Position numbers and translations under genes: made by a program
Shown here: piece by piece, positions 322 through 55,287 of the stretch
Layout: each line of letters begins with the position of its first letter
Numbering within the stretch: position 1 is the first letter of the stretch
Notes under the pieces: generated by a model
Seen by the model: the letters and a program-made list of their open reading frames with translations, nothing else
Told to the model about the DNA's origin: nothing
Databases searched by the model: none
Origin: Candidatus Binatia bacterium
GTDB taxonomy: Bacteria; Desulfobacterota; Binatia; DP-6
Reading direction: 5' to 3'
Assembly (NCBI GenBank): GCA_046327955.1
Contig: JAXLXP010000006.1
Coordinates: 82,977-146,976, forward strand
DNA: 64,000 nt

Positions 322-1119
322 CTAGCGGCGCTTCGGCCCGACCTCTGCGATCAGACGCAGGAGGCCGTCGTGCAGGACGCCGTTCGACGCGATCATGCCT
401 GGGCGCAGCGGCGACGCCTGGTTGAAGACGAGCGGCTCGCCCTCGAGCCCGGTCACCCGGCCACCGGCCTCCTCGACGAGCAGCGTGCCGGCGCAGATGT
501 CCCACTCGTTCTTGGGCGTGAGCGTGAAGGTGGCGTCGCCCTCGCCGCGGGCGAGCTCGGCCAGCTTGAACGCGACCGAGCCGGTGAGCGCGACGCGACA
601 GTGAGGCTTGAAGGCATCCCACTCGCCGCGCTTGTCCTCGGAGCGGCTCGCCATGACGACGGCGTCGGCCACGCGATCCTGGGGGCTCACGTGGACACGC
701 GTGCCGTCGACCGTGGTGCCGGCGCCACGTACCGCCACGTAGAGGCGGTCGGCCGCGGGATTGTACTCGACCGCGACCACCGGTCGGCCGGTCTCGACGA
801 GCGCGATGCAGACGCAGAACTCGGGGATGTGCTGGATGAACTCCTTGGTGCCGTCGAGCGGGTCGACGACCCACACCCGCCGCCGGTCGAGCCGGTCGTG
901 GGAGTCCGCCGTCTCCTCGGAGAGCCAGCCGTCGTCGGGAAACGCCGTGCTCAGGTGACGGTGGATGATCTGGTTGGCTTCGAGGTCGGCGGCGGTCACC
1001 GGGTTGTCGTGGCCCTTGTCGCGGGCCTGGACTTCGCCCTCGTAGTACCGCCGGATCGCGGCGCCCGCCTCCCGAGCCGCGGCGATCGCGACCTCACGCT
1101 CGCGCGCGAAGGTGCTCAT
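322..1119 (-). CDS. Inositol monophosphatase / CysQ-family 3'(2'),5'-bisphosphate nucleotidase
   Basis: 265 aa; metal-binding motif [19 protein letters not shown]; ATG at 1119. Confidence 0.75.
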
Positions 1120-2249
1120 GACCGTGCCTCGGACCGGCCGGCATGCGCCGCCTCGAATTCCGCACGCAGGCGGCGCAGGAGATCGTCGCGCCGTTCGTAG
1201 AGCCGCTTGGGCGTGCGGGGCGCATGGTTGGCGAGCGCGTAAGCGGTGAGGAGCGGCAGGGCGATCGTCGAGTCGCAGTAGCAGACGACCGTGTCCGGGA
1301 GCATGTCGGGGTCGACCTTTCCCCAGCTCACTGCCTCGCTCGGCGTCGCGCCGGAGAGCCCCCCGGTGTCGACCCGTGCGTCGGTGAACTGGACGAAGTA
1401 GTCATGCCCCTTCTCCGCGATTCCGAGGACCTCTTGGATCTGGGGCTCGGTCTGGAGCATGAAGTTCTTGGGTGACCCGCCGCCGAGGATGAGGACGGCG
1501 CTCTTGCCGCCACCGCGCTTGGCACCGAGCACGATCGCGGCGGTCTCGTTCACGTCGCGCGCCACGTCGATCTTGAGCTTGCTGCCCTCGAGCGCCAGCG
1601 CGGCGACGTTCATGCCGATCGAGCTGTCGCCCGGCGACGAGGTGTAGACCGCAACGCCCTGTTCCCAGCAGGCGGCGATGAACGACTTGCGGGTGAGGCC
1701 GAGGATCTTCTGGCGCTCGGCGACCGCGCGTCCGATCAGGTGGTGGAATTCGGCGGTGCCCATCTCGCGCTGGAACTCCGGCGCGCCGAGGATCGTGCGG
1801 TAGAACGCATCGGTGTCGAGCAGGACCCGATAATCGAAGACGATGTCGTAGATGCGCACGACCCCGTCCTCGCGCAGGGCGACGTCGTCCAGGTCCGGGT
1901 GGCCGCGGTGCATGGCGAGACCGATGCCGAAGTGGGTGTCGTGGTAGAGGTTGGCGCCCGTCGAGACGACCCAGTCGACGAAGCCGGCCTCGACCAGCGG
2001 GATCAGACAGGACATCCCGATCCCGGCCGGTGTGAGGGCGCCGCTCAGGGCGAGCCCGATGGTCACGTCGGGCTCCAGCATCCGGCGCGTGAAGAGCTGG
2101 ATGGCCTCGCGCAGCCGGGCCCCGTTGTACGCCTGGAACGCCCCATCGACGAGGTCGGTGACCGTCGTCGCCGAGGTCACCGGGCGAGGCTCGATCCGGG
2201 CGCCCGAGAGCAGTCGCTTCATGTCCCCCATGGACGGTGTTGGTATCAA
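1116..2249 (-). CDS. Deoxyhypusine synthase-like protein (DHS family)
   Basis: [11 protein letters not shown] resembles DHS GGGxPKH NAD-binding motif; 4-nt ATGA overlap with downstream IMPase start; start ambiguous (TTG 2249 / ATG 2231 / ATG 2222). Confidence 0.5.
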
Positions 2250-2274
2250 ATTTCCGCCGGGTTAATAAAACCGG

Positions 2275-2733
2275 GTGCGAACGCTCGTGATCGTCCTGGC
2301 CACCGCCGGTGGGGTGGGTTACGTGCCGCTGGCGCCGGGGACCTTCGGCTCGCTGGTCGCGTTGCCGTTGCTGCCGGTGTTGGCCGAGCTCCGCGCCCGC
2401 ATGCCGATCACCCATGCGGTCGTGTTGCTCGCGGTCGTCGGCGTGGCCGTCTGGGCCGCGGGCCGGGCGCACGCGGTCTTCGGCGTGCACGATTCGGGCC
2501 GCGTCGTGATCGACGAGGTGGCGGGGATGGTGGTCGCTGGCCTCTTCCTGCCTGGCACCTGGCGTGCCGCGGGGTTGGCGTTCTTGTTCTTCCGGCTGTT
2601 CGACGTCCTCAAGCCGTTTCCCGCCGGTCTCATCGACCGCCGGGTGCGGGGCGGGCTCGGAGTCGTCGGCGACGACCTCGTCGCGGGTGTCTACGCCGGG
2701 GTCGCCGCCCGGCTCGTTCTGGAGGTCCTGTGA
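2275..2733 (+). CDS. pgpA: Phosphatidylglycerophosphatase A
   Basis: 152 aa, GTG start; conserved PgpA N-terminus GYVPLAPGTFGSL and multiple TM helices. Confidence 0.75.
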   Translation: MRTLVIVLATAGGVGYVPLAPGTFGSLVALPLLPVLAELRARMPITHAVVLLAVVGVAVWAAGRAHAVFGVHDSGRVVIDEVAGMVVAGLFLPGTWRAAGLAFLFFRLFDVLKPFPAGLIDRRVRGGLGVVGDDLVAGVYAGVAARLVLEVL

Positions 2734-4001
2734 TCCGACGCGCCGTCATCCTGTCCACGGGCGACGAGCTCACCACCGGTCGCGTCGTCGATACCAACTC
2801 GAGCTGGATCGCCGACCGACTCTTCGAGGTCGGGGTCGACGTCGTGGCGGTGCTCACGGTCGGGGACTTTCCGGAGCGGCTCGAGTGGGCCTGGCGGCGC
2901 GCGCTCGAGCTCGGCGACCTGGTGATCTCGACCGGCGGCATCGGTCCCACCGCCGATGACCTCACCACGGAGACCGTTGCGCGCGTGCTCGACGTTCCAC
3001 TGGTCGAGGACGCGGAATCCGCCGACCGGATGCGGCGGTTCTTCGCCGGCCGTGGGATCGAGATGCCGGCCAACAACCTGAAGCAGGCCCTGGTGCCGGC
3101 GGGCGCCACGATCGTACCCAACTCGCTCGGCACTGCGCCCGGCTACCGGGCGTCCATCGGCGCGCGACATGTCGTCGTGCTGCCCGGCGTGCCACGCGAG
3201 ATGAAGCCGATGGTCGACGAGACCGTGCTGCCGTGGGTGCGTGCCCAGCGTGGCGGAGAGGTTCACCTGGCGCGGACGTTCCAGACCTTCGGCGTGTCGG
3301 AGTCCAGGCTCGACGAGCTGGTGGCGGGCGTGGTCGACCCGGCGGAGGGCCGCCTGTCGTTTCGCGCGAGCTTCCCGGAGGTGTCGGTGCGCGTGGTCGT
3401 GCACGGCGCGGCGGACGAGGCGGCTGCGCGCCTCGACCGCGTGGCGGGCCGGCTGCGCGAACGGCTGGGGGCGTGCGTCTACGGCGAAGGGACGACGACC
3501 CTCGAGGCGGTGGTGGGCGCGTCGCTGCGCGACCGCGGCCTGACGCTCGCCCTCGCCGAGTCGTGCACGGGCGGATTGGTCGGCCACCGCGTCACGAACG
3601 TGCCCGGCAGCTCGACGTATTTCCTCGGCGGCGCCGAGGTCTACTCGAACGGGGCCAAGGAGCGCGTGCTCGGCGTTCCGCCAGCGCTGCTTGCCGAGCA
3701 CGGCGCCGTCTCGGAGCAGACCGCGGCCGCGATGGCCGACGGCGCGCGCCGCCTCTTCGGCGCCGACCTCGCGGTCGCGATCACCGGCATCGCGGGGCCG
3801 GACGGCGGGACGCCGGAGAAGCCCGTCGGCACCGTCTGCTTCGGTCTCGCCGCGGCCGAGGGCACGGTGACGCGGCGGTATCAGCTGTGGGGCAACCGCG
3901 AGTGGGTGAAGCTGCTCGCGTCGCAGGTGGCGCTCGACTGGGTGCGCCGCAAGGCGCTCGGGCTGCCGGTCACCGAGTCGTACCGACCGCTCGGTCGCTG
4001 A
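2730..4001 (+). CDS. cinA: CinA competence/damage-inducible protein (MoCF-binding + PncC-like NMN amidohydrolase domains)
   Basis: GTG start overlapping pgpA stop (GTGA); 424 aa in the 3' part of track ORF 1740..4001; motifs ILSTGDELTTG, ISTGGIGPTADDLT, LALAESCTGG. Confidence 0.85.
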   Translation: MIRRAVILSTGDELTTGRVVDTNSSWIADRLFEVGVDVVAVLTVGDFPERLEWAWRRALELGDLVISTGGIGPTADDLTTETVARVLDVPLVEDAESADRMRRFFAGRGIEMPANNLKQALVPAGATIVPNSLGTAPGYRASIGARHVVVLPGVPREMKPMVDETVLPWVRAQRGGEVHLARTFQTFGVSESRLDELVAGVVDPAEGRLSFRASFPEVSVRVVVHGAADEAAARLDRVAGRLRERLGACVYGEGTTTLEAVVGASLRDRGLTLALAESCTGGLVGHRVTNVPGSSTYFLGGAEVYSNGAKERVLGVPPALLAEHGAVSEQTAAAMADGARRLFGADLAVAITGIAGPDGGTPEKPVGTVCFGLAAAEGTVTRRYQLWGNREWVKLLASQVALDWVRRKALGLPVTESYRPLGR

Positions 4002-4007
4002 CCATGC

Positions 4008-4604
4008 GTGCCCTCCTCGGGTGACACCCTGCGCTGCTTCGTCGCGATCGACCTGCCGGACGAGCTGCGTGCGGCCGTGGCGCAGGCGCAGCGCGCGCTG
4101 CGGCGCGAGGCGGGACCCGCCGACGTGCGCTGGGTGGATCCCGGCGCGCTGCACCTGACGCTCGCGTTCCTGGGCGCGGTGGGGGAGAGGCAGCGGGCGC
4201 CGATCGAAGCGGCGCTGCGCGCGCTGGCCGAATCGCACGCGCCCCTGGCGCTCGCCGCCGCCGGTCTCGGGGCGTTTCCGAGCCCGCGGCGCGCGCGCGT
4301 CGTGTGGGTCGGCATCGCGGGCGGCGCGGGGGCCCTCGCGCGGCTGGCTGTGGACGTCGAAGCGGCGCTCGCGCAGCTCGGGTTTCCGCCCGAGAGCCGG
4401 CCGTTCCAGGGTCACGTGACCCTCGGCCGCGTGCGTCGGCCGGATGGCCTCTCGCGTCTCGCGGCCGCGATCGAGGCAGGCGCGGGCACGTCGTTCGGCG
4501 CCTGGACGGCTCGCGAGATCGTGCTCTACCAGAGCCGGCTCGGCCCCACGGGGGCCGTCTACGTGCCGCTGGCGCATGTGCCACTCGGGCCGCGGGATGC
4601 CTGA
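4008..4604 (+). CDS. thpR: RNA 2',3'-cyclic phosphodiesterase (2H family, LigT/ThpR)
   Basis: Two H-x-T-x motifs (HLTLAFLG, HVTLGR) at the expected spacing; 198 aa. Confidence 0.75.
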   Translation: MPSSGDTLRCFVAIDLPDELRAAVAQAQRALRREAGPADVRWVDPGALHLTLAFLGAVGERQRAPIEAALRALAESHAPLALAAAGLGAFPSPRRARVVWVGIAGGAGALARLAVDVEAALAQLGFPPESRPFQGHVTLGRVRRPDGLSRLAAAIEAGAGTSFGAWTAREIVLYQSRLGPTGAVYVPLAHVPLGPRDA

Positions 4605-4699
4605 AATTATATGGCGCCTGCCGCTGGAGAGTCCCGGACAGGCGCGGTAGAGTGACAAGCAATTGACAGCCGCCCGCGTGCAGAGGGGGAGGGTGTGAC

Positions 4700-5800
<1,101 letters not shown>

Positions 5801-5803
5801 GAC

Positions 5804-6955
5804 GTGGATCTCGTCACCATCCTCCGCGAGGCCGTCAACCGGGGGGCATCGGACATCCATCTGAAGGTCGGCTCGAAGCCGGTCTTCCGCGTGTCGGGTA
5901 CGCTCATGCGCTGGGACGAGTCCCCGGTGCTCGACCGCGACCACATGATCCTGCTCACCCAGGGGCTTCTGGAGGACTACCACTGCCAGAAGCTCAAGGC
6001 GCACCTGCAGGTCGACGCTGGTTTCGGCCATCCCGACCTCGGGCGCTTCCGCGTGAACGTCTTCTACCAGCGCGGCGACCTGCAGGCGTCGCTGCGCCAC
6101 ATCCCGCCGCGCGTCCTCCAGATCCGCGAGCTCAATCTCCCGCCGGTCATCGAGCGCATCGCGATGGAGAACCGCGGGCTCGTGCTGGTCACCGGCACGA
6201 CCGGTAGCGGGAAATCTACCAGCCTCGCGGCGATGATCGACCATCTCAATCGGCAGAACCCGCTGCACATCATCACCATCGAGGACCCGATCGAGTACCA
6301 CCACAACGACGAGCAGTGCATCATCACGCAGCGCGAGGTGGGCGTCGACGCGGAGAGCTTTGCCGCGGGGCTGAAGGGCGCCCTGCGCCAGGATCCCGAC
6401 GTGATCCTGGTCGGCGAGATGCGCGATCTCGAGACGATCGAGACGGCCATCCTCGCCGCCGAGACCGGGCATCTCGTCTTCTCCACCCTGCACACCCTGG
6501 ACGCGACCGAGACCATCACCCGCGCGATCTCGGTCTTCCCGGAGCACCAGCGCGCCCAGATTCGACTCATCCTGGCGAGCGTGCTGAAGGGGGTCATCTC
6601 CCAGCGCCTCGTCCCGCGCGCAGACGGCCTCGGAATGGTGCCGGCGGTCGAGGTCCTGCTCGCCACCGGCCTCGTGAAGGAGTGCATCTCGGATCCCGAG
6701 CGCACGCGCGAGCTGCGTGACGTGATCGCGCGCGGCTTCACGACCTACGGCATGCAGACGTTCGACCAGTCGCTCATGGGCCTCTGGCGGCAGGGCCTCA
6801 TCACCTTCGAGGAAGCCATGGCCCAGGCGACCAACCCCGACGACTTCGCGCTCAAGGCCCGCGGCATCTCCTCGGAGAGCGACCGGACCTGGGACGACTT
6901 CATGGGCGAGGAGCCCGGCAGCGGCGAGGCGCCGATCAAGGTCGAGCGCTTCTAG
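5804..6955 (+). CDS. pilT: PilT-family type IV pilus retraction/twitching motility ATPase
   Basis: 383 aa; Walker A VTGTTGSGKSTSLAAMIDHLN, GEMRD, LVFSTLHT; starts 4 nt after recA stop. Confidence 0.85.
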   Translation: MDLVTILREAVNRGASDIHLKVGSKPVFRVSGTLMRWDESPVLDRDHMILLTQGLLEDYHCQKLKAHLQVDAGFGHPDLGRFRVNVFYQRGDLQASLRHIPPRVLQIRELNLPPVIERIAMENRGLVLVTGTTGSGKSTSLAAMIDHLNRQNPLHIITIEDPIEYHHNDEQCIITQREVGVDAESFAAGLKGALRQDPDVILVGEMRDLETIETAILAAETGHLVFSTLHTLDATETITRAISVFPEHQRAQIRLILASVLKGVISQRLVPRADGLGMVPAVEVLLATGLVKECISDPERTRELRDVIARGFTTYGMQTFDQSLMGLWRQGLITFEEAMAQATNPDDFALKARGISSESDRTWDDFMGEEPGSGEAPIKVERF

Positions 6956-6998
6956 CGCGTCGACGGGCCACGGGGCCGCGCCGACCACGCCCCTCGAC

Positions 6999-7418
6999 GT
7001 GGCGGCGCGGCTCCTCACGCGCGCCCCGCGCACGGTGGCGGAGCTCACCCAGCGTCTGGTGGCGATGGGCTACCGGACGACCACGGCCGAGGTCACGGTC
7101 GCGCGTTGCGTCGAGCTCGGCTGGGTCGACGATTCGGCCCTTGCCGAGGATCGTGCTCGCCAGCTCCGTCGCCGCGGCGCGGGACCGTTGCGCATCGGGT
7201 CCGACCTCGAGGGTCGCGGGCTCTCCGAGCGCGTCGTGCAGGAGGCGATCGATGCGTCGCGCGACGGGCGCTCCGAGGCGGAGTGGGCACGGCAGGTGCT
7301 GTGCGGCCAGGGAGAGCCGGTGGCGTTGCGCGATCGCGCCCGCGCCTGGCGTCTGTTGGCAGGCCGCGGATTCCCCGAGGAGGTCGTTGCGGATGTGCTC
7401 GGAGACCACGGCGAATAG
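6999..7418 (+). CDS. recX: RecA regulator RecX
   Basis: 139 aa, GTG start; RecX three-helix-repeat pattern (LGWVDDSALAEDRARQLRRRGAGPLRIGSDLEGRGL). Confidence 0.75.
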   Translation: MAARLLTRAPRTVAELTQRLVAMGYRTTTAEVTVARCVELGWVDDSALAEDRARQLRRRGAGPLRIGSDLEGRGLSERVVQEAIDASRDGRSEAEWARQVLCGQGEPVALRDRARAWRLLAGRGFPEEVVADVLGDHGE

Positions 7419-7428
7419 CGATTATTCC

Positions 7429-7458
7429 TTGACAACGGCGCCGGGGCCTCGGTAGCTT
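7429..7458 (+). promoter_or_regulatory. Sigma70-like promoter candidate (-35 TTGACA, 18-nt spacer, -10 TAGCTT) upstream of the secreted repeat protein gene
   Basis: TTGACA at 7429-7434 and TAGCTT at 7453-7458, read directly from sequence in an AT-richer patch after recX. Confidence 0.3.
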
Positions 7459-7476
7459 CCCCCCGATCTTGACGCC

Positions 7477-8946
7477 GTGTCACGGCAACGTCGACCGGCG
7501 TCTGCACGAGGGGGACGACAAGTGGGCCGAGTCGCAAGGATCGGGAGAGCGCTCGCTTCGACCCTTGCGGGGGTTCCCGGACCGCAGCGTGGTGGGGGTG
7601 GGTTTCCCCGCGTCCTGATCGCGCTGGGCCTGTGGCTGGCGGCCGTGCCCTGTCAGGCGTCCGTACCCCCGGCGCTCAGTCTCCCCGGCTACCCGGTGGA
7701 CGCCGCGTATGCCCACCCCGGAGTCGACAGCTTCTTCGACATCACGCTCGCCGGGGTCGGGGGAGGGTTCGACGTCGCCGACGGCACCTACACGGGGTGG
7801 TGCACGGAAGACAACGGACAGGAGAACACCTCTCCCGTGACGTTGTACTCGACGTACGACCCGGCGCTGCCCGGGAACCTCGGCGGGGTGCCCTGGGACC
7901 GGGTCAACTACCTCCTGAACCACAAGCAGGGTGACTGGCAGGAGGTGCAGGCGGCGCTCTGGATGGTCATCTGGGGCGCATCGAACCTCTATCCCGTGAC
8001 GCCCACGGCTCAGGCGATGATCGACGACGCGGCGGCCAATGGCCCCGGGTTCGCGCCCGGAACGGGCGAGATCATCGCCGTCGTCCTGTACACGGGCGAC
8101 GCCGGCATCGCGCCCGAGGGCTTCCAGGATACGGTGATCGAGGTGCCGGTCCCCGTGGTGACGACCACCACCATCACGACGTCGACGACCACCTCGACCA
8201 CCACCAGCACGACCACCACGTCGACCACGAGCACCACCACGACCACCCGCCCGCCGGACACCTTCCAGTGCTACGAGGTCGACGACGAGCCATTCGCCAG
8301 ACAGGTGAGCCTCGACGATCGCTACGGGACCGGCACGGTCGGGCTGCGCAAGGCCTGGCGTCTGTGCAATCCCGCCGGTACCAGCCAGCCGGATCCCCAG
8401 GTGCCGACGCGCATCGAGCACCTGGTCGGATACGCGATCGACCAGACGACTTTCCAGCGTCGGAACGACGTGCACGTGACCCCGCTGCTGAGCCAGTTCC
8501 CTCCGACCACGGTCGACTTGGTGCGGCCCGACGTGATGATGGTCCCGTCCGCGAAGAGTCTCGATGCGCCGCCGGGACCGCTCACGGATCCGGCGATCGA
8601 TCACTTCAAGTGCTACCGCGTCCGGGGAAGGCTCGGCTGGCAGCCGGTCGGCAACGTCACGATCAAGGACGAGTTCACCGACTTCGTGAACCTCAATGGT
8701 GACGGGACGCTGCACGTCGACGTGCGGATTCCGTTCCGGCTCTGTGTGGCTGCCGACAAGAACCATGAGGGGGTTCGCGGGCCCGACGACGCCTTCATGT
8801 GCTACCGGGTACGTGTCACTGCCGGAACGGACACGTTCCGCGGGCCCGACACCTCGGTCTTCGTGGACAACCAGTTCGGGGCCGCCACCTTCGAGAACGT
8901 CCGCCACCTGCGGGAGTTCTGCGTGCGGTCCGCCGTCACGCCCTGA
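7477..8946 (+). CDS. Secreted protein: N-terminal domain, Thr/Ser-rich linker, three C-terminal FxCY...C repeats (hypothetical)
   Basis: Signal-peptide-like LIALGLWLAAVPCQA; in-frame GTG at 7522 is an alternative start; linker TTTTITTSTTTSTTTSTTTTSTTSTTTTT; three repeats with (F/H)xCYxV motif. Confidence 0.55.
   Translation: MSRQRRPASARGGRQVGRVARIGRALASTLAGVPGPQRGGGGFPRVLIALGLWLAAVPCQASVPPALSLPGYPVDAAYAHPGVDSFFDITLAGVGGGFDVADGTYTGWCTEDNGQENTSPVTLYSTYDPALPGNLGGVPWDRVNYLLNHKQGDWQEVQAALWMVIWGASNLYPVTPTAQAMIDDAAANGPGFAPGTGEIIAVVLYTGDAGIAPEGFQDTVIEVPVPVVTTTTITTSTTTSTTTSTTTTSTTSTTTTTRPPDTFQCYEVDDEPFARQVSLDDRYGTGTVGLRKAWRLCNPAGTSQPDPQVPTRIEHLVGYAIDQTTFQRRNDVHVTPLLSQFPPTTVDLVRPDVMMVPSAKSLDAPPGPLTDPAIDHFKCYRVRGRLGWQPVGNVTIKDEFTDFVNLNGDGTLHVDVRIPFRLCVAADKNHEGVRGPDDAFMCYRVRVTAGTDTFRGPDTSVFVDNQFGAATFENVRHLREFCVRSAVTP
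8158..8247 (+). repeat. Thr-codon (ACC/ACG)-rich low-complexity coding repeat (linker)
   Basis: Runs of acgacc/accacc codons; similar low-complexity DNA occurs in 40311-40775. Confidence 0.6.
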
Positions 8947-9251: not shown

Positions 9252-9878
9252 CTACCACAGGTACACCAGCGTGTAGAGGATCGGCCAGATGCCGACTACG
9301 AACAGCCAGTACAGGTGCACCGCGGTGACGCCGGCGTGGTCGCGGGCGCTGAATCGGCCCCGGCGCGCACCGGCCAGAGCGACGAGGAGCGCGCCGAGGC
9401 CGCCGAGGACGTGCAGGCCGTGGCAGCCGATCAGGGTGCAGAAGAGGCCGCCGTAGACGCCTGGGCGGATCGTCAGCCCATGGCGGAAGAGGCCCACCCA
9501 CTCGATCCCCTGGATGGCCAGGAACAGCGCGCCGAGGATCGTCGTGCGGGAGAGCTCCCCGACCAGTGCCGCCGGTTGGCCCCTCCGGATCGCGTTGCGC
9601 GCGCGGACGACCGTCCAACCGCTGAGCAACAGGACGAGCGTGTTGACGGCCGTGACCTCGACCGGCAGGCGCGGCTGCCCGGGCGGCGGCCAGCCTCCCG
9701 CGGTCCCGCGCAAGACCATGAAGGCGCTCACCAGGCCCGCGAAGAACATGCTCTCCGCGCCGAGGAAGATGAGCATGCCGAACACGGCATTCGAGCCCGC
9801 CGGCCCGCGACTCACCGGCGTCGTTCCCTGGAACGGACGGACGACGCCTCGACGTTCAACGGCCAGGGCCATCCCCAT
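9252..9878 (-). CDS. Cytochrome c oxidase subunit III-like paralog (second copy)
   Basis: 208 aa; heme-copper oxidase subunit III fold (CHGLHVLGG, HLYWLFVVGIWPILY); start ATG overlaps subunit IV stop (ATGA). Confidence 0.7.
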   Translation of the reverse strand: MGMALAVERRGVVRPFQGTTPVSRGPAGSNAVFGMLIFLGAESMFFAGLVSAFMVLRGTAGGWPPPGQPRLPVEVTAVNTLVLLLSGWTVVRARNAIRRGQPAALVGELSRTTILGALFLAIQGIEWVGLFRHGLTIRPGVYGGLFCTLIGCHGLHVLGGLGALLVALAGARRGRFSARDHAGVTAVHLYWLFVVGIWPILYTLVYLW

Positions 9879-10195
9879 CAGTGGTGCGCGGTGTCGGCGG
9901 CGGGGGGCGGGCCGTCGTGCATGCGGCGCGCGATGTCGGGGATGAGGGACAGCACCATCGCGATGGCCAGGATCACGGGGATGCCGGCGATGGCGTAGAG
10001 GACACGCGGCACCTGCTTGAGGTGCATGTAGTGGCGCACCACCAGCACCGCCTTCACGAATGCGATCGTGAAGATGAGCCCGACCGCCAGCTCTTTGTTG
10101 AACGGCATGATGGCCATGCTGACGCCGAGGACCACCAGGATCACCAGGTAGACCCAGATCGTGAAGTAGCTCGGACCGGAGTGCTCTCGTGTCAT
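9878..10195 (-). CDS. Cytochrome c oxidase subunit IV (bacterial CoxD/CtaF type)
   Basis: 105 aa, 3 TM helices (YFTIWVYLVILVVLG, FVKAVLVVRHYMHL); sits between two subunit III genes. Confidence 0.6.
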   Translation of the reverse strand: MTREHSGPSYFTIWVYLVILVVLGVSMAIMPFNKELAVGLIFTIAFVKAVLVVRHYMHLKQVPRVLYAIAGIPVILAIAMVLSLIPDIARRMHDGPPPAADTAHH

Positions 10196-10203
10196 CGTCG
10201 TCC

Positions 10204-10800
10204 TCACGTGAGATAGACCAGCGGGAACAGGAAGATCCACACGACGTCGACGAAGTGCCAGTAGAGACCGGCATACTCGACGCGATGCTGGACCTTCGCC
10301 CAGGTGGTGGGGCTTCCCGCCGCGATGGCGAGGCAGAGGTTGACGATCACTCCGCCGAGCACGTGCAGCCCGTGCAGCCCCGTCATCAGGTAGTAGTACG
10401 ACCAGAAGAGCCCGCTCGAAGGGAGAATCCCATGGCGGATCTCACCCGAGTACTCGTATCCCTTGTTGCAGAGGAAGAGCAGGCCGAATGCGACCGTGAC
10501 GAACAGGAAGCGCTGCGCCCGCTTGCGATTCCCGGCCGAGACCGCCGCGTGCGCCTCGACGATCGTGAAGCTGCTGGTCACGAGGATCAACGTGTTGATC
10601 GCCGCCAGGCGCGTGTTGACGTGGGACATCTCCTGTTCCCACCCGCCCGAGGCGAATCGCGAGAGGATGAAGCTGCCGAGCAGTCCGCCGAAGACCATGA
10701 TCTCGGAGGCCAGGAACCACCACATCCCGGCCCGACCGAACGGAAGATCGGCGAGACGTTCGCCCTCCCCGTTCCCGTGCCCTGCTGCCGCTGCCTGCAT
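10204..10800 (-). CDS. ctaE: Cytochrome c oxidase subunit III
   Basis: 198 aa; strong AGGAGG RBS before ATG at 10800; conserved subunit III motifs (LHGLHVLGG, YWHFVDVVWIFLFPLVY). Confidence 0.85.
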   Translation of the reverse strand: MQAAAAGHGNGEGERLADLPFGRAGMWWFLASEIMVFGGLLGSFILSRFASGGWEQEMSHVNTRLAAINTLILVTSSFTIVEAHAAVSAGNRKRAQRFLFVTVAFGLLFLCNKGYEYSGEIRHGILPSSGLFWSYYYLMTGLHGLHVLGGVIVNLCLAIAAGSPTTWAKVQHRVEYAGLYWHFVDVVWIFLFPLVYLT

Positions 10801-10811
10801 GTGCTTTCCTC

Positions 10812-12557
10812 CTAGACGGCAGGCGCGCCTTCGGGCGCGGTCTGCGGGATCCAATCGGCTGTCTTGCCGGGTACGCTGTACTCGTACGGGTCGCGGTACA
10901 CCGTCGGTGTCGTCTTGAAGTTCCCATGGGGCGGTGGGGACGAGGTTGCCCACTCGAGGGTGTTGGCCTGCCACGGGTTGTCCGGAGCCTTTTCGCCGGC
11001 GAGCAGGCTCCACGCGATGTTCACGAACAGGATCACCTGCGAGACGATCAGGACGATGGCGGCGATCGTCACGAACTGATGGATGGGCTGCATCGGCTTG
11101 AGGTAGTCGAATTGGTAGGGGTTGTAGATGCGACGATGGTGCCCGCCCAGGCCGACCGCGAAGAGCGGGATGAACACGAGATTGAACGAGATCATGGTGA
11201 GCCAGAAGTGCAGCTTCCCGAGGCGCTCGTTCAGCATGCGGCCGGTCATCTTCGGGAACCAGAAGTAGAGACCGGCGAGACCGCCGAGGATCGCCGAGGG
11301 GAAGAGCGTGTAGTGAAAATGCGCCAGCACGAAGTACGTGTCGTGCAGGTAGATGTCGGCCGCTGCCGCGCCGAGCGGGATGCCCGTGACCCCGCCGATC
11401 AGGAAGCTCGCCAGGGTGCCGACCGCGAACAGCATCGGCGTGGCGAACGTGATCGAGGCCCGCCAGAGGGTGGCGATCATGCTGAAGATCATCACCGCGA
11501 ACGGCACGGAGATGAGGATGGTGGTGACGCTGAAGGGCACCGCCAGCCGCGCGTCGATACCGCTCACGAACATGTGGTGGGCCCAGACGACGAAGCTGAG
11601 GGCTCCGGCGGTGATGGTCGACCAGACGATCGCCCGGTAGCCGAAGATCGGCTTGCGGGAGAACACCGGCAGGATCTCCATGATGGCCCCGAACCCGGGC
11701 AGCAGGATGACGTAGACCTCCGGATGGCCGAAGAACCAGAAGAGGTGCTGCCACAGCAGCGGGTCGCCGCCGCGCTCGGGGAGGAAGAATCCCGTGCCGA
11801 TCGTGCGGTCGAGGAGCAGCATGACCGCGCCGGCGACGAGTGGCCCGACCGACAGCATGAAGAGCACCGCGGCCGTGAGCTGCAGCCACACCATGAGGGG
11901 GAGGCGCATGAGGCTCATCCCCGGGGCGCGCATGTTGACGGCCGTCACGAGGAAGTTGACGCCGCCCATGAGGAACGACGCGAACTCGAGTGCGAGGGCC
12001 AGCAGCCAGAGGTTCCCGCCCCAGTTGACGCCCGTGTACTGCGGATCGGCCGAGAGCGGCGGATACCCGGTCCAGCCGGCCGCCGCGGGGCCGCCGGGGA
12101 CGAAGAAGGACGAGAGCAGCACGAGCGACGCCGTGCCGAGCGTCCAGACCGACATCATGTTGAGCCGCGGGAACGCCATGTCCGGCGCACCCACCATCAG
12201 CGGGATGAGGAAGTTGCCGAACGCCCCCAGGAGGATCGGCATGGCCGCGAAGAACACCATGATGGTGCCGTGCATGGTGACCACGGCGTTGTAGAAATCG
12301 GGCGGGACGACCCCGCCGAACATGGTCGGCTCCGGCACCCAGGAGAAGCCCGGTACGGGAGTCTCGGGCCAGGCGAGCTGCCAGCGGATCAGATAGGCTC
12401 CGATGGCGCCCACGGAAGCCATGAACATCCCGATGCCCAGGTACTGCTTCCCGATGACCTTGTGGTCGACGGAGAAGATGTACTTGCCGAGGAAGCTCGT
12501 CGGCTCGGCGTGCTCCATGTGATGGGTGTGCGATTCGGCTGGTGCGTGCATGCTCAT
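10812..12557 (-). CDS. ctaD: Cytochrome c oxidase subunit I
   Basis: 581 aa from ATG 12557 (GGGAG RBS); heme-copper oxidase signatures (WFFGHPEVY, HHMF, YLHDTYFVLAHFH). Confidence 0.95.
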   Translation of the reverse strand: MSMHAPAESHTHHMEHAEPTSFLGKYIFSVDHKVIGKQYLGIGMFMASVGAIGAYLIRWQLAWPETPVPGFSWVPEPTMFGGVVPPDFYNAVVTMHGTIMVFFAAMPILLGAFGNFLIPLMVGAPDMAFPRLNMMSVWTLGTASLVLLSSFFVPGGPAAAGWTGYPPLSADPQYTGVNWGGNLWLLALALEFASFLMGGVNFLVTAVNMRAPGMSLMRLPLMVWLQLTAAVLFMLSVGPLVAGAVMLLLDRTIGTGFFLPERGGDPLLWQHLFWFFGHPEVYVILLPGFGAIMEILPVFSRKPIFGYRAIVWSTITAGALSFVVWAHHMFVSGIDARLAVPFSVTTILISVPFAVMIFSMIATLWRASITFATPMLFAVGTLASFLIGGVTGIPLGAAAADIYLHDTYFVLAHFHYTLFPSAILGGLAGLYFWFPKMTGRMLNERLGKLHFWLTMISFNLVFIPLFAVGLGGHHRRIYNPYQFDYLKPMQPIHQFVTIAAIVLIVSQVILFVNIAWSLLAGEKAPDNPWQANTLEWATSSPPPHGNFKTTPTVYRDPYEYSVPGKTADWIPQTAPEGAPAV

Positions 12558-12574
12558 CGTCGTGCTCCCGGAGA

Positions 12575-13258
12575 TCAGCTGGCGGCCGCGGCCTTCGCGG
12601 ACTGCTCGGCGAGCCATGCCTGGTACTCGTCTGGCGTCTGGACGACCAGCCAGCCGCGCATCGTGTAGTGGCCGAAGCCGCACAGCTCGGCACACGGCAG
12701 CTCGTACTTGCCCGGGACCGTGGCGTTGAACCACGCCTTGATCATGCGTCCGGGCAGGATGTCCTGCTTCAACCGGGCGGTGGGGATGAAGAAGCTGTGG
12801 ATCACGTCCTTCGAGCGCAGCTCCATGTGGACGTTCTGGTTGACGGGAACGTGGAGCTCGTTGCCGACCTCGAAGTCGTCCGGCGTGCCGAACTTGCCGT
12901 CCTTGCCGGGGTACGTGAAGTCCCAGTTGAACTGGCGCGCCAGGGCGTGGATCTCGATGCCGCCGTCGGGCTGGTGCTCCTTGATCCGCGCCCAGACCGG
13001 GCCGCTGACCCCGTCGATCGAGAGGTCGAGGGCGAGGACCACCGCGGCGGGGATGAGCACCCAGGCCAGCTGGGAGAAGGTTTCACCGCGGACGTATGCG
13101 GCTCTCTCGCCCGGACGGCGGCGATATCGCAACACGAAATAGAGCAACAGCCCTTCGGCCGCGATGAACCATACGCCGACGATGTAGTAGATGAGGGTGA
13201 AGACGTGGTCGACGTCACCCCCATAGGTGGAGATGTTCTGGGGAAACCACTGGATCAT
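12575..13258 (-). CDS. ctaC: Cytochrome c oxidase subunit II (CuA; no fused cytochrome c domain)
   Basis: 227 aa; two N-terminal TMs; CuA ligands HSFFIP...CAELCGFGHYTM; no CXXCH. Confidence 0.9.
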   Translation of the reverse strand: MIQWFPQNISTYGGDVDHVFTLIYYIVGVWFIAAEGLLLYFVLRYRRRPGERAAYVRGETFSQLAWVLIPAAVVLALDLSIDGVSGPVWARIKEHQPDGGIEIHALARQFNWDFTYPGKDGKFGTPDDFEVGNELHVPVNQNVHMELRSKDVIHSFFIPTARLKQDILPGRMIKAWFNATVPGKYELPCAELCGFGHYTMRGWLVVQTPDEYQAWLAEQSAKAAAAS

Positions 13259-13410
13259 GCGGACGAGTCTCCTTCGGACGGGAGTCTCGCGCAGGGCGCG
13301 CGGAGTGGAGCAGTGGCTAGTAGGCCATCACGTCAAAAATGTCCAGATTCGGCGCACTCCGGCCTTGCCGCGCCTTGCTGCTCCGGAATCGGCCCGGTAG
13401 AACGACCCCC

Positions 13411-16059
<2,649 letters not shown>

Positions 16060-25631: not shown

Positions 25632-26778
<1,147 letters not shown>

Positions 26779-39161: not shown

Positions 39162-41636
39162 TCACGGGAGCAGTGACATGTCGGTCACGAGCGAGAGCCC
39201 GCCGGGTCCGGGCAGGCCTGCCACCGGGTCGATGGTGAGGCTCACACTGCCGATGCAGAACGTCGAGGCGACCGTGACCTCGCTGGCCGCACTGCCGAGC
39301 CCACTGGCCGACGGGGTGCCGCCCTGCTTGATCGTGCGCGCGAGCTTGTGCCCGAACGCTCCGACCTTCTGGCTCGTCTGACCCGAACAGAAGAGGCCGG
39401 TCGTCGACGTCTTCGACGTCGTCCCGGTGGTGAGCGGGTTGAGGGCGATCGGCAAGGGTGCCTGGAAGGCACCGTCGGACGGACAGTCGACGCTCGGCTT
39501 GTTGGCCGTGACGCCGTCGTTGAAGACGCATGACAGCCCCGACCGTGGGCCGCGGCTGCACTGGTTGGCCGCGGTGCAGACTGGGCAGGGAACCGCCACG
39601 TTGCCGGTCAGGTAGACGCGCGACTGGAGGGTGACGTTGAGGGTCACCGTCCCGCTCGCCGTCGTGTCGGCGGTGCCCGAGCTGTCGGTCTCGATGCCGT
39701 TCACGACACAGGTGGAGAGGGCCGGGTTGCCGGGGTTCGGAATCGGGAGCGGGGGCCCGAAGTAGCAGTTGATGTCCGGCTGGCACCCCTTGCCGAAGTT
39801 GCCGCAGTCCGCGTCGGTGGTGCAGACGGCGCCCGCGTTCGCTTGATTGAGGCAGTGCCTGGCAGGGCCCGTCCCGAGCGTGCAGTTCTTGTTGGCTCCG
39901 CCGACCGGGTAGACGTTGAACCCGGTCGTCGTGCCGACACCGGCGTTCGGCCCGAGTGTGAGGGTCGTGCCGTTCTGCTGGGTGATCGTGAAATACTGGC
40001 TCGATCCCGTCGGAATCGGCCCACCCGGGACGGCCGTATTGCTGCCGCCGCCGAGGTACAGACAGCCCCTTCCGAGGTCGCTCAGCTTGCCGTTGGTCGC
40101 GTTGTCGATCTCGCCGGAGAACGGCGGCGCCGGCGGCGGGCCGAGCGTGGTTCCGCACACTCCGCTCGTTCCGCAGTCCGCTCCCGTGGTGCAGGCGCCG
40201 AGCCCGTTGGTGCCGCCCAGATTGCTACCGCCCGTGCAGTGGACGTTCAGGGCCGGGCCGCCGCAGCTCGACGTTCCTGGTTTGAGCGTCATCTTGAGCT
40301 TGCTGAACCCGATCGTGGTGGTCGTCGTCGGGGTCGTGGTGGTGGTCGTGGTCGGAAGCGTCGTGGTGGTCGTCACGATCGTCGTGGACGTCGTCGTCGG
40401 AACCGTGGTGGTCGTCGTGGCGATCGTGGTGGAGGTGGTCGTCGGGATCGTGGTGGTCGTCGTGGCGAGGGTGGTCGTGGTGGTCGTCGGCAGCGTGGTC
40501 GTGGTGGTGACGACGGTGGTGGAGGTGGTCGTCGGAATCGTGGTCGTCGTCGGCGCCACGCACGTGCAGGCGATGCAGGCATCTCCCTCCGGGCAGTTGC
40601 CGAGGATCGCGCCGCCCGCGGACGTGTCGCACTGCTCGCCCTGGTCGAGCTTGCCGTTGCCGCAGAGGGGAATCGTGGTCGTGGTGGTGGCGATGGTCGT
40701 GCTGGTCGTCGCCAGGGTCGTCGTGGTGGTGGCGATCGTCGTCGACGTCGTGGTCGTGACCGTCGGGAGGCCCCTCACGTAGGCGCGGTCGGCGCTCACG
40801 ATGTCCCCCACGACCCGCCCGCGCACGTGCGACTCTTTGCCGAGGCCGACGAGCGCGTGCGGCGCACAGATGATGCCGTCGAGCTGGGCGCGTTTGGAGA
40901 CGCGGACCCGCTCGCCGCGAACGAGGAACTCGACGTTGCGCGGGTCGGTGCCCGAGGACGGCGACGCGCCGGCGAACGCCTCGTTGAACACCTCGAGGTC
41001 GCCGGTGATGAACACCTGCGCCGCGCTGTCGACGAGGAGCTGCGCGCCGCGGGCCAGCCGGAGGTTGCAAAAGACATACGTGCCGCCCGAGAGGCGGAGG
41101 GTGCCGGCGTTGGCGTCGCCGCTGCCGAGCACGAGGACGTCGCTACGGAGCGTCGGTGAGGTCGAGGAGCCGCCGCCGATCGTCTGGAACCCATTGTGCC
41201 CGACCGTGACCGGGGCCCCGCCGCAGTTGGGGAACTGCCGCGGAAAGCCGCAGGCGTCGCCGAGATCGGCGACGAGCGGATCGATCAGGCCGCCGGGCAT
41301 GGCGGGGCAGGCCGCCTGCGTCTCGATCACCTGGCCCGCAAAGAGCCCGCCGCACCGTGACCCGCGGCCGAGCCGCGCGATCTTGGCGACGACGTCCTGC
41401 GCGTGGGCGTCGAGCTTGCCGTGCGTGAGCGCCGAGCCGCTGTTCACCCGAAGCCCGCCCTCGTCGACGTCGAAGAAGCCCTTCGTCCGCACGAGCTGGC
41501 CGGCGAGAACCGCGTAGTCGGCCGGAGCCCGGCTCGGCCGCGGGGCCGCCGTGCGAGCCGGTGGCGCGAACGCGAGCGCTCCTGCCATGATGGCTAGCAA
41601 GCTGCCGACGATCGCGTAGCGCGTGCCTGATCTCAT
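39162..41636 (-). CDS. Large secreted protein (824 aa): N-terminal domain, myxobacterial Cys-rich repeat flanked by Thr-rich tandem linkers, C-terminal Gly/Cys-rich domain
   Basis: ATG 41636 with GGAGGG RBS; signal peptide MRSGTRYAIVGSLLAIMAGALAFA; LCGNGKLDQGEQCDTSAGG matches TIGR02232-type repeat; about five imperfect 17-aa TTTTT(L/I/V)PTTTSTT(I/V)(A/V) units. Confidence 0.7.
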   Translation of the reverse strand: MRSGTRYAIVGSLLAIMAGALAFAPPARTAAPRPSRAPADYAVLAGQLVRTKGFFDVDEGGLRVNSGSALTHGKLDAHAQDVVAKIARLGRGSRCGGLFAGQVIETQAACPAMPGGLIDPLVADLGDACGFPRQFPNCGGAPVTVGHNGFQTIGGGSSTSPTLRSDVLVLGSGDANAGTLRLSGGTYVFCNLRLARGAQLLVDSAAQVFITGDLEVFNEAFAGASPSSGTDPRNVEFLVRGERVRVSKRAQLDGIICAPHALVGLGKESHVRGRVVGDIVSADRAYVRGLPTVTTTTSTTIATTTTTLATTSTTIATTTTTIPLCGNGKLDQGEQCDTSAGGAILGNCPEGDACIACTCVAPTTTTIPTTTSTTVVTTTTTLPTTTTTTLATTTTTIPTTTSTTIATTTTTVPTTTSTTIVTTTTTLPTTTTTTTPTTTTTIGFSKLKMTLKPGTSSCGGPALNVHCTGGSNLGGTNGLGACTTGADCGTSGVCGTTLGPPPAPPFSGEIDNATNGKLSDLGRGCLYLGGGSNTAVPGGPIPTGSSQYFTITQQNGTTLTLGPNAGVGTTTGFNVYPVGGANKNCTLGTGPARHCLNQANAGAVCTTDADCGNFGKGCQPDINCYFGPPLPIPNPGNPALSTCVVNGIETDSSGTADTTASGTVTLNVTLQSRVYLTGNVAVPCPVCTAANQCSRGPRSGLSCVFNDGVTANKPSVDCPSDGAFQAPLPIALNPLTTGTTSKTSTTGLFCSGQTSQKVGAFGHKLARTIKQGGTPSASGLGSAASEVTVASTFCIGSVSLTIDPVAGLPGPGGLSLVTDMSLLP
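40311..40556 (-). repeat. Imperfect tandem ~51-nt repeats encoding a Thr-rich linker
   Basis: Repeated gtcgtggtggtcgtc...ggaaccgtggtg units read directly. Confidence 0.65.
40666..40775 (-). repeat. Second Thr-rich linker-coding low-complexity repeat
   Basis: Encodes TVTTTTSTTIATTTTTLATTSTTIATTTTTIP. Confidence 0.6.
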
Positions 41637-41843
41637 CCTGCCCTCCACGAGACGGGTCGGTGCCCTCCGACCCCGCCCATTGCTGAGCAAAATCCGTAAC
41701 ACGCTGGCCAAGCGAAGGGAAGCCAAAAGCCGCGGCCCGGCGCGGGTTTCGTCGTGCGCCTGGGCAAGAACTGCCGCGCGGGGTGGCGATTCTGCAAGGG
41801 CCTGCCCGAGTGGCCGCGATGTTGCGCGGATGCGGCACCTGCC

Positions 41844-54900: not shown

Positions 54901-55287
54901 GTGCGGCACGATGCCCTCGAGGCGGTAGATCTCCGCGACCGCGCGCTCGAGGTAGGCCTCGAGCCGGTCGTGGTACTCCTCGGGGTCGAGCCGCGCGGCG
55001 AGCGCGGTGGAGCCGACCAGGTCGCAGAAGAGCACGGTGACCTGCTTGCGCTCGCCGGCGGGCAGGTCCCGGGTGGCGCGCAGCTTGTCGGCGAGCCCGG
55101 CGGGGATGTGCTGGGCGAGGCGCGCCAGCCGTGCGTCGGCGAGCGGGGCGCCGCAGCCGGGACAGAACCGGAACCCGGCCTCGACCACGGTGCCGCACTG
55201 TGCGCAGGTCTGCGGCACCGGCGCGCCGCAGTTGTGGCAGAAGGGTTTGCCCGGGAGGAGCTCCGTGCCGCAGCTCGCGCAGTGCAT
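51979..55287 (-). CDS. Multidomain adenylate/guanylate cyclase: N-terminal double zinc ribbon, class III cyclase domain, STAND/AAA NTPase, C-terminal TPR-like array
   Basis: 1102 aa; CASCG...CHNCG...CAQCG...CPGCG; cyclase VTVLFCDLVGSTAL, GDGFMALFGAP, RIGVNTGPVVVG; P-loop VVGDAGSGKSRLV. Confidence 0.85.
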   Translation of the reverse strand: MHCASCGTELLPGKPFCHNCGAPVPQTCAQCGTVVEAGFRFCPGCGAPLADARLARLAQHIPAGLADKLRATRDLPAGERKQVTVLFCDLVGSTALAARLDPEEYHDRLEAYLERAVAEIYRLEGIVPHLAGDGFMALFGAPIAHEDAPQRAVRAALAIHAALEGLGQEPLRVRIGVNTGPVVVGTVGSDLRMEYTAIGDTTNLAQRLQTVAEPGTTLVSDTTARLVRGAFHLQPRGPFALKGITEPVTAHEVTGRTDARTPMALAVERGLTPFVGRTEELAQLLACHERLAGGLAQVVAVVGDAGSGKSRLVHEFRERLAGTPTQVLEGRCAALSQSVPYAPFVGMLRRHFALESGETGETVCSKVAAGLRSVEPALDAGYPFLCRLLSPGAPGSEELALEGLEEQTFAAVAHLVVGLARQAPIVMVVEDLHWIDPQSRRMLEDAVARLGNESVMLLVTHRRDYEATWRPASAFTQLRLRPLAEAHTRAIVRAVAGGPLPDDVEERILARAEGSPFFTEEITRALVEEGHEIPIPGTVQEVLAARLDRLSPAAKRVVQVAAVFGRQFRRPELEHVLTGEPIDVGQELDELLRRGILHRQNFLSLDEYRFGESLTQEVAYESLLLKHRRQLHDRVAAQLEEGIVDGDAARLVLLAHHRARGDDAASATAALLRAGRETEKVPSYGTAALLYRQAWEIADAALGAHPELTRAAVNASLEFCRVSVIYGSTEVDQVERAAARGRELARELADPEAVAYLTLYLGMATMGGDEDRFARGLALIEEALAVAQRAGREVAQIRIARGLASAYLMDGRFELARQTIGWVVAELARLGHAEKLTDLYLGARVVSDAIHYLSEDPNASLAAVRDTYEAAVRAGNRTVQSGSSGMLAGVYFMRGEYVEAQRWADLSLAIASAISTRNSLASIAGVALLSRFERGEPVSPQRYLDLIDEGLSAALGSTLYNYRFVCEAFLAVGDLGRAERFLERTHGRTGGRAIAAQTAEAAGQVLTRLGPDRWSEAARTFTRAISLAEAIGANSVLAAALIGDAELAAARGDLARSRAQLAHGSLVAAELGLAYYSRRADRLRAALEAGAAPMAETSPPAA

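Follow-up and report, generated by a model that had tools for sequence, protein, structure and literature searches.

Why does a gene for a PilT-family ATPase lie between recA and recX, and what could its product do there? The question is raised by a stretch of 64,000 nucleotides (nt) from the Candidatus Binatia bacterium contig JAXLXP010000006.1 (assembly GCA_046327955.1), the whole of which is called here the window. In it the genes pgpA, cinA, thpR (also ligT), recA, the ATPase gene (pilT) and recX follow one another on the forward strand. The recA, pilT and recX genes are a conserved unit in this Binatia-like bacterium, with thpR placed upstream. The initial annotation of the window described pilT as inserted between recA and recX. 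Such an insertion is not new, having been published for the Geobacteraceae in 2016: Geobacter sulfurreducens pilT1 (GSU0146) lies between recA and recX and the order is conserved in the family (Speers et al. 2016, PMC5065972). The arrangement is therefore already known, and the window is a further, Binatia-like example of it. Full-text searches of the literature gave no other description of recA-pilT-recX beyond the Geobacteraceae report. The explanation favoured here, which on balance is probably correct, is a Binatia-like recA operon whose PilT1-type ATPase is likely a partner-docked accessory motor for pilus-mediated DNA uptake.

The six co-directional genes are identified by their family matches (Table 1). 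The products of cinA, thpR, recA and the ATPase gene pass the curated NCBIfam cut-offs, and those of pgpA and recX pass the Pfam gathering cut-offs only. CinA contains the Pfam domains MoCF_biosynth, CinA_KH and CinA (PncC-like domain), and the thpR translation shows both HxTx motifs (HLTL and HVTL). As read from the sequence, pgpA and cinA overlap in GTGA, cinA and thpR are separated by 6 nt, and thpR and recA by 95 nt. The gap between recA and pilT is 3 nt (TAG GAC GTG) and the one between pilT and recX is 43 nt. A Shine-Dalgarno-like AAGGA is located within the 3' end of recA, 8 nt before the GTG of pilT. The gene calls, coordinates and common direction of the initial annotation, together with its GTGA overlap and 3-nt gap, are confirmed by these matches and by the reading of the junctions.

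The genome has about 70% GC, and the GC content at third codon positions (GC3) of the called forward-strand genes is 0.85-0.95. Consequently, the long antisense open reading frames (ORFs) are regarded as artefacts of the high-GC composition. A terminator scan found no terminator-like site at any gene junction. It gave two hits only, one inside pgpA and one inside cinA, which do not exceed the shuffled expectation. A search for structured RNA in the leader and the junctions, covering 2000-7600, gave no Rfam hit with an E value of 1 or below.

Among named proteins, the nearest homologues of the ATPase, at about 75% identity, belong to 'Candidatus Binatia' and 'Deltaproteobacteria' metagenome-assembled genomes (MAGs). 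The order thpR-recA-pilT is kept in 8/8 Binatia-like contexts (L009, L010, L011/L012, L093, L094 and the place of P0055, plus the window itself), with thpR directly upstream of recA in all 8, recA-pilT gaps of 3-6 nt and recX next wherever the contig continues. The synteny comparison thus finds the arrangement in every Binatia-like context examined, and the refuting condition named in the initial annotation, an arrangement confined to this assembly and missing from relatives, does not hold. A pilT gene flanked on one strand by recA upstream and recX downstream is present in the window and also at L003, L009-L013 and L028.

The genes further upstream are less constant. The pgpA-cinA pair is immediately upstream of thpR in the window, L093 and L011/L012; in L009 and at the P0055 place other genes have been inserted between the pair and thpR, and in L010 and L094 the pair is absent there. 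The two genes adjoin each other, with pgpA first, in the window, L093 and L011/L012 and at the P0055 place, whereas in L009, L010 and L094 pgpA does not occupy this position. Since pgpA-cinA is displaced or absent in several relatives, the stable unit is thpR-recA-pilT-recX; the six-gene unit first proposed stands for these four genes and not for pgpA and cinA. Outside the Binatia-like contexts, two MAGs with close homologues labelled Myxococcota carry pgpA-cinA-thpR-recA-pilT-alaS without recX, their PilT being 62% identical to that of the window (the query). A Deferribacterales MAG carries recA, pilT after 3 nt, and recX, with a PilT at 53% identity to the query. Because the gene order recurs in independent assemblies, it is far beyond chance.

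The initial annotation suggested that pilT is co-expressed with the recombinase. Joint expression of pilT with recA and recX is indeed very likely, as is supported by the 3-nt gap, by the lack of a terminator-like site at the junctions, by the order kept in relatives and by reverse transcription-polymerase chain reaction (RT-PCR), which demonstrated the co-transcription of recA and pilT1 in G. sulfurreducens (PMC5065972). The PilT-1 protein has also been detected by proteomics (PMC8691401). From the layout of the genes and by analogy with Geobacter, recA, pilT and recX would be co-transcribed and translationally coupled in the window organism. The upstream co-directional pgpA-cinA-thpR may read through into recA.

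The extent of the subfamily was delimited by a metagenome scan with an alignment of the recA-linked PilT sequences, which returned 80 loci, and by twelve further loci. Neighbouring recA genes were searched for by tblastn; recX, alaS and ilvE were searched for with hidden Markov models built from the recurrent neighbours. Counting the loci evaluable on both sides, recA, recX or alaS is adjacent to pilT in 22/25 loci whose PilT shares 49.5% identity or more with the query and in 2/31 loci below this value. In a neighbour-joining tree, 31/31 linked PilTs are placed inside one 40-member clade, and outside this clade 0/52 are linked.

Three layouts are found: recA-pilT-recX(-alaS), recA-pilT-alaS and ilvE-pilT-recX-alaS. 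The last, attributed to the Vicinamibacterales (Acidobacteriota) from named close homologues, has no recA upstream, and in it pilT and recX often overlap or meet at a very short junction. It occurs as (Ser/Thr kinase)-ilvE-pilT-recX-alaS at L018, L019, L023-L025, L027, L029, L032, L034, L040 and L048. Since this form has no recA upstream, the pilT-recX-alaS association outlasts the adjacency to recA. The PilT1-type proteins are a distinct subgroup of the PilT/PilU family, encoded in the recA-recX-alaS neighbourhood and not beside pilus genes. They are present in at least five lineages, namely Binatia, Myxococcota-like bacteria, Deferribacterales, Vicinamibacterales (Acidobacteriota) and, by publication, Geobacteraceae. 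A second PilT-family ATPase gene is never beside the subfamily members, whereas such tandem PilT/PilB-class genes are common outside the subfamily. The 64-kb window contains no other PilT/PilB-class ATPase. No pilus or competence gene was found in the recurrent neighbourhood of some 40 subfamily members, nor in the 42 scanned proteins of the window, a set that does not include about five called ORFs at 56-63 kb and a number of short ORFs.

Some of the PilT representatives have unusual architectures (P0147, P0148, P0151, P0159, P0177; P0204, P0211, P0217, P0223). In one type the PilT core is fused to a C-terminal TPR-like repeat region of roughly 400 aa. In the other type a coiled-coil region of 350-550 aa precedes the PilT core and the C-terminus has the conserved form ...(S/T)LM(S/N)W(L/I). 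Representatives of 740-910 aa were considered as RecA-PilT fusions; the candidates were rejected, being PilT proteins with C-terminal TPR-like repeats or N-terminal coiled-coil extensions.

The ATPase itself aligns with TIGR01420 over residues 3-347, corresponding to profile positions 2-343 of 343. Its four catalytic boxes are intact: the Walker A GTTGSGKST, the Asp box TIEDPIE, the Walker B DVILVGEMRD and the His box ETGHLVFSTLHT. Most columns of these boxes are invariant across the alignments. In the P-loop, G131, T133, G134, G136, K137 and T139 are invariant, S135 and S138 nearly so, and T132 varies. The full-length PilT-family ATPase with Walker A, GEMRD and His box that had been described from the translation is thus upheld by the profile and by the alignments. 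Its best solved relatives are Thermus thermophilus PilT2 (1e-98), Aquifex aeolicus PilT and Geobacter PilT4. An AlphaFold2 model of the protein has a mean predicted local distance difference test score (pLDDT) of 73. Foldseek matched the model to G. metallireducens PilT4 (6e-44), Thermus PilT2 (9e-42) and Pseudomonas aeruginosa PilU (1e-41), with template modelling (TM) scores of 0.7-0.8, and a two-domain PilT fold is accordingly predicted for the ATPase. No DNA-binding domain was detected in it by the Pfam and NCBIfam scans.

The departures from canonical PilT are found in the C-terminal part. When the C-terminal third (114 residues) is compared separately, P. aeruginosa PilU (9e-12) comes after Thermus PilT2 and above the canonical PilTs (1e-6 to 1e-4). 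The canonical representatives carry A(I/V)RNLIRE, and the subfamily has (L)VKECISDPERT at this place; residue C294 does not vary among 31 sequences of three lineages. PilT proteins conserve AIRNLIRE and PilU lacks it (PMC6762196); AlphaFold 3 modelling puts the motif at the PilT-PilC interface (bioRxiv 10.1101/2025.10.30.685630). In the same modelling study, PilU contacts PilT through a C-terminal extension specific to PilU and is thereby bridged to the pilus machine. Disorder is predicted for the tail of the window ATPase, where residues 358-383 have a pLDDT below 50. The 31 sequences compared (Binatia-like, Myxococcota-like and Vicinamibacterales-like) all keep its R382 and F383, and most subfamily members have an xRF(G) ending, which no PilT outside the subfamily shows. 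The tail motif was also considered as a marker of recA linkage specifically, and this was rejected because the ilvE-pilT-recX members carry it as well; it marks the subfamily as a whole. By its sequence, the ATPase is assigned to the PilT/PilU family and not to PilT proper.

Taken together, these features suggest the following mechanism. The PilT1-type protein would form a PilT-like hexameric ATPase, the production of which would be tied to that of RecA and RecX by operon linkage and probable translational coupling. Because AIRNLIRE is absent and a C-terminal extension is present, as in PilU, the ATPase probably cannot engage the PilC platform alone, and it would dock on a partner via its tail. 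Its most likely job would be that of an accessory motor in pilus-mediated DNA uptake, feeding RecA-dependent recombination; the main alternative job would be a pilus-independent role with RecX or RecA. An accessory or specialised motor is more likely than the main pilus retraction motor. For the Geobacter protein, Speers et al. suggested, without testing it, a DNA-uptake traffic ATPase of the type IV secretion system type, coordinated with recombination (PMC5065972). A wider proposal is that the PilT1-type proteins form a multi-phylum orthologous group of hexamers derived from pilus motors, which acts off the pilus platform and works with RecX/RecA or in DNA uptake via the R-F docking tail. 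In this broad form it is rather doubtful; if true, it would reveal a new accessory factor of recombination or transformation, unrecognised inside the recA operon.

Three rival explanations are each weakened by the available data. The hexamer could be independent of pili and act with RecX or RecA, by remodelling the filament or the RecX-RecA complex or by translocating DNA, while the R-F tail docks a recombination protein. The linkage pilT-recX(-alaS) indeed persists in Acidobacteriota without adjacent recA, with its tight junctions, and no pilus gene recurs around the subfamily. The loss of the motif modelled at the PilC interface points the same way, and a clade-specific terminal motif on a disordered tail is typical of a docking peptide. 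On the other hand, we know of no PilT/VirB11-class ATPase that acts on RecA filaments or naked DNA, the protein shows no detectable DNA-binding domain, and recX is not next to pilT in the Myxococcota-like loci (recA-pilT-alaS). We regard such a role as unlikely. The pilT gene could also be a hitch-hiker, a paralogue inserted once into the recA-recX-alaS cluster and inherited without functional coupling. The order recA-recX-alaS is widespread and ancestral, being that of Escherichia coli, and the confinement of all linked PilTs to one clade is compatible with a single insertion. The neighbourhood also erodes in places, as recA is lost in Acidobacteriota, recX is lost in the Myxococcota-like loci and three evaluable loci are without all three genes; in the window alaS is about 6 kb away. 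However, the linkage survives at about 50% PilT identity between lineages while the other flanking genes turn over completely, the gaps of 3-6 nt between recA and pilT and the overlapping pilT-recX junctions are kept, and co-transcription was shown experimentally in Geobacter. Inheritance without coupling is, in our opinion, a little less likely again.

The least probable of the three is that the gene encodes the primary type IV pilus retraction motor, PilT proper, set in the recA operon so that retraction and DNA uptake are induced with the recombinase. The protein is full-length, has all four boxes intact and passes the TIGR01420 cut-off; its fold matches that of PilT4, its overall sequence is closer to PilTs than to PilU, and cinA belongs to the same cluster. 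Nevertheless, the PilT-conserved AIRNLIRE is absent, the window holds no other PilT-family ATPase and no pilus gene among the scanned proteins, and the subfamily members never adjoin another PilT-family ATPase. Moreover, Geobacter PilT1 restored neither piliation nor twitching in the P. aeruginosa PAK delta-pilT mutant, and in G. sulfurreducens only the deletion of pilT4 gave retraction-deficient, hyperpiliation-type phenotypes (PMC5065972). The name 'retraction ATPase', used in the initial annotation, therefore overreaches, given the replaced AIRNLIRE, the C-terminal extension, the lack of pilus genes found nearby and the failure of the Geobacter counterpart to rescue.

Several observations also weigh against the favoured accessory motor of a recA operon. 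Pilus or competence genes were found neither near the subfamily members nor among the scanned window proteins, so that the role in DNA uptake is guilt by association only. The full-length scores of the ATPase are 289-334 bits with PilTs versus 273 bits with PilU (9n32), so that 'PilU-like' describes an analogy and not a membership. At the Myxococcota-like loci, 160-245 nt separate recA from pilT; the coupling of recA and pilT is consequently not universal, and internal promoters within recA may exist. The Fisher test on 22/25 versus 2/31 gives 2.5e-10 with no correction for shared ancestry, and the bootstrap of the exact 40-member clade is weak (9/100). The orthology with GSU0146 is drawn from position and from seven primer-translated residues per end, and not from the full sequence.

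The spacer between thpR and recA was analysed as the leader of recA. In 6 aligned Binatia-like loci, CTGGAGA and the following TC are invariant (CTGGAGA(G/C)TC), though the surrounding spacer has diverged. In the same 6 loci, TA(G/A)(A/G)GT is kept at exactly 17 nt after TGGAGA. The TGGAGA-17-TAGAGT footprint matches the sigma-70 consensus at 8/12 positions and is read, from this conservation, as the probable recA promoter. A generic promoter scan found nothing, because the 8/12 consensus matches of the footprint fall below its threshold. The TTGACA hexamer noted initially is present in the leader. As a recA promoter it was rejected: it is not conserved in L093, L009, L010, L094 and L011, where the other promoter-like footprint is kept, and there is no -10-like hexamer 16-18 nt downstream of it.

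The regulatory elements described for recA in other bacteria were sought in the same region. LexA boxes of eight consensus types (E. coli, Cheo, alpha, Geobacter, Myxococcus, Bdellovibrio, cyanobacterial and Xanthomonas) were searched for in 4560-4720 with up to 1 mismatch allowed and were not found, as the absence of a LexA box noted by eye had indicated; a lineage-specific undescribed box or operator may exist. The recA leader (4560-4720) contains no inverted repeats, and the actinobacterial RecA-NDp motif was not found in it. The core of the Deinococcus radiation/desiccation response motif (RDRM) was scanned across 2000-7500 and is reported for three intergenic regions: it gave no match with up to 2 mismatches upstream of pgpA, in the recA leader or at the pilT-recX junction. 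A palindromic operator GGAGnCTCC was considered and rejected; the palindrome is lost in the window, L093, L094 and L011, and the direct CTGGAGA is kept there.

Table 1. Genes, motifs and leader elements of the recA-pilT-recX locus and its surroundings, in positions of the window.
Feature	Positions	Strand	Evidence or remark
pgpA (phosphatidylglycerophosphatase A)	2275-2733	+	PF04608, 127 bits; variable upstream member of the cluster
cinA (competence/damage-inducible protein A)	2730-4001	+	NF001813, 429 bits (cut-off 379)
thpR/ligT (RNA 2',3'-cyclic phosphodiesterase)	4008-4604	+	TIGR02258, 147 bits (cut-off 65.7)
Conserved block CTGGAGAGTC	4624-4633	+	Contains the -35-like hexamer TGGAGA (4625-4630)
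-10-like hexamer TAGAGT	4648-4653	+	17 nt downstream of TGGAGA
TTGACA hexamer	4663-4668	+	Probably a chance match
Shine-Dalgarno-like GGGGGAGGG ahead of the recA ATG	4685-4693	+	G-rich block at the same position in relatives
recA	4700-5800	+	TIGR02012, 565 bits (cut-off 325); RecA and RecA_C domains
pilT (PilT1-type PilT/PilU-family ATPase, predicted hexamer, 383 aa)	5804-6955	+	TIGR01420, 446.9 bits (cut-off 319.1)
Walker A/P-loop GTTGSGKST, residues 131-139	6194-6220	+	Alignments of the subfamily and outgroup PilTs
LVKECISDPERT, segment replacing AIRNLIRE	6671-6706	+	One-residue insertion, invariant Cys294; alignments with solved and related PilTs
C-terminal tail: SSxSDxxWDDF, acidic variable linker, terminal (I/V)(E/D)RF	6866-6952	+	About 30 residues past the PilT core
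recX	6999-7418	+	RecX_HTH1 42 bits, HTH2 30 bits, above cut-off; start codon uncertain
Cytochrome c oxidase cluster (COX3, COX4_pro, COX1, COX2)	9252-13258	-	Separates recX from alaS
alaS	13339-16059	+	tRNA-synt_2c, 677 bits; usual downstream partner of recX

The start of recX deserves a separate comment. Not until the GTG at 6999 does the frame offer a start codon, and the residues TPLD, conserved in homologues, are encoded just upstream of it. Homologous RecX proteins start further upstream, often overlapping the 3' end of pilT, and from about 6727 to 6999 the recX frame has no ATG, GTG or TTG. Translation of recX may begin at a non-canonical codon, or RecX may be N-terminally shortened here.

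Downstream of recX, a DUF7450 gene and the opposite-strand cytochrome oxidase cluster occupy the roughly 6 kb that separate it from alaS. Since pilT-(recX)-alaS is contiguous in many related loci, the oxidase cluster seems to have been inserted into a neighbourhood that was ancestrally recA-recX-alaS. The gene directly after recX (7477-8946, forward strand) encodes a protein of 489 aa with a signal-peptide-like N-terminus, a DUF7450 repeat (PF24247, 49 bits) and a Thr/Ser-rich linker of roughly 30 residues, TTTTITTSTTTSTTTSTTTTSTTSTTTTT; it has no NCBIfam match. On the other side of the cluster, a homospermidine synthase gene (NF001980, 563 bits; 1116-2249, reverse strand) is located between an inositol-monophosphatase-family gene and pgpA. 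It is absent at that position in L093, the closest relative with context, and is consequently seen as a small lineage-specific insertion.

Elsewhere in the window, prfB (release factor 2; 25633-26778, forward strand) has the classical programmed +1 frameshift site at 25719-25734. At this site CTT TGA C comes after GGGAGG, and the +1 frame carries on with the PCRF and RF-1 domains. An ORF of 1580 aa (39162-43904, reverse strand) has a coding-like GC3 of 0.82 and no Pfam match at E up to 1e-5. A protein of 1102 aa (51979-55287, reverse strand) combines double zinc-ribbon, adenylate/guanylate cyclase and AAA_16 (STAND-like) domains.

The regulation of RecA and the uptake of DNA are central to repair and horizontal gene transfer, and a conserved ATPase, retained within the recA-recX unit of several phyla, is a candidate for an unrecognised player in both. 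To the Geobacteraceae report the present analysis adds how widely the synteny extends, the pilT-recX-alaS form that is without recA, the finding of no pilus neighbours, and the loss of AIRNLIRE together with the R-F tail. These are modest leads. The practical value of the window is likewise modest, since it contributes no more than a Binatia-like example; the delimited subfamily, with its diagnostic tail motif and its recA/recX/alaS synteny, is more useful.

Among the known systems, the cinA-ligT-recA operon documented in Deinococcus (PMC5552922) has the same genes in the same order and orientation as the window, which bears out the earlier remark that this order was known. The window differs from it in several respects: no RDRM motif was found, pilT and recX follow recA, and recA has a conserved promoter-like footprint of its own in the 95-nt spacer. 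Furthermore, cinA is displaced or absent in several Binatia-like relatives. Thermus PilT2 (PDB 5fl3) shares with the ATPase the one-residue insertion and the segment ...E(L/C)(L/I)xDxE(K/R)T in place of AIRNLIRE. By neighbour-joining, however, PilT2 is placed outside the recA/recX/alaS-linked clade, and its aligned solved chain ends without the WDDF...RF tail. Salzer and colleagues are said to have found in 2014 that PilT2 affects piliation and twitching in Thermus. PilU resembles the ATPase in fold, catalytic motifs, the absence of AIRNLIRE and the C-terminal extension, whereas the window ATPase gene is not beside a pilT and the tail of its product ends in the clade-specific R-F motif.

In the Geobacter operon, as in the window, recA and recX flank a PilT-family gene that has their orientation. 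The window host is, in contrast, Binatia-like and has thpR (and pgpA-cinA) directly upstream, and the Geobacter paper contains neither the tail motif nor the distribution beyond the Geobacteraceae (PMC5065972). The termini of Geobacter PilT1, translated from the published primers (PMC5065972), are MELNDIL... and ...EGIEKF, which fit the N-terminus of the subfamily and its (I/V)-E-(R/K)-F ending. By its position, and only partly by its sequence, the ATPase of the window is probably the counterpart of Geobacter PilT1 (GSU0146).

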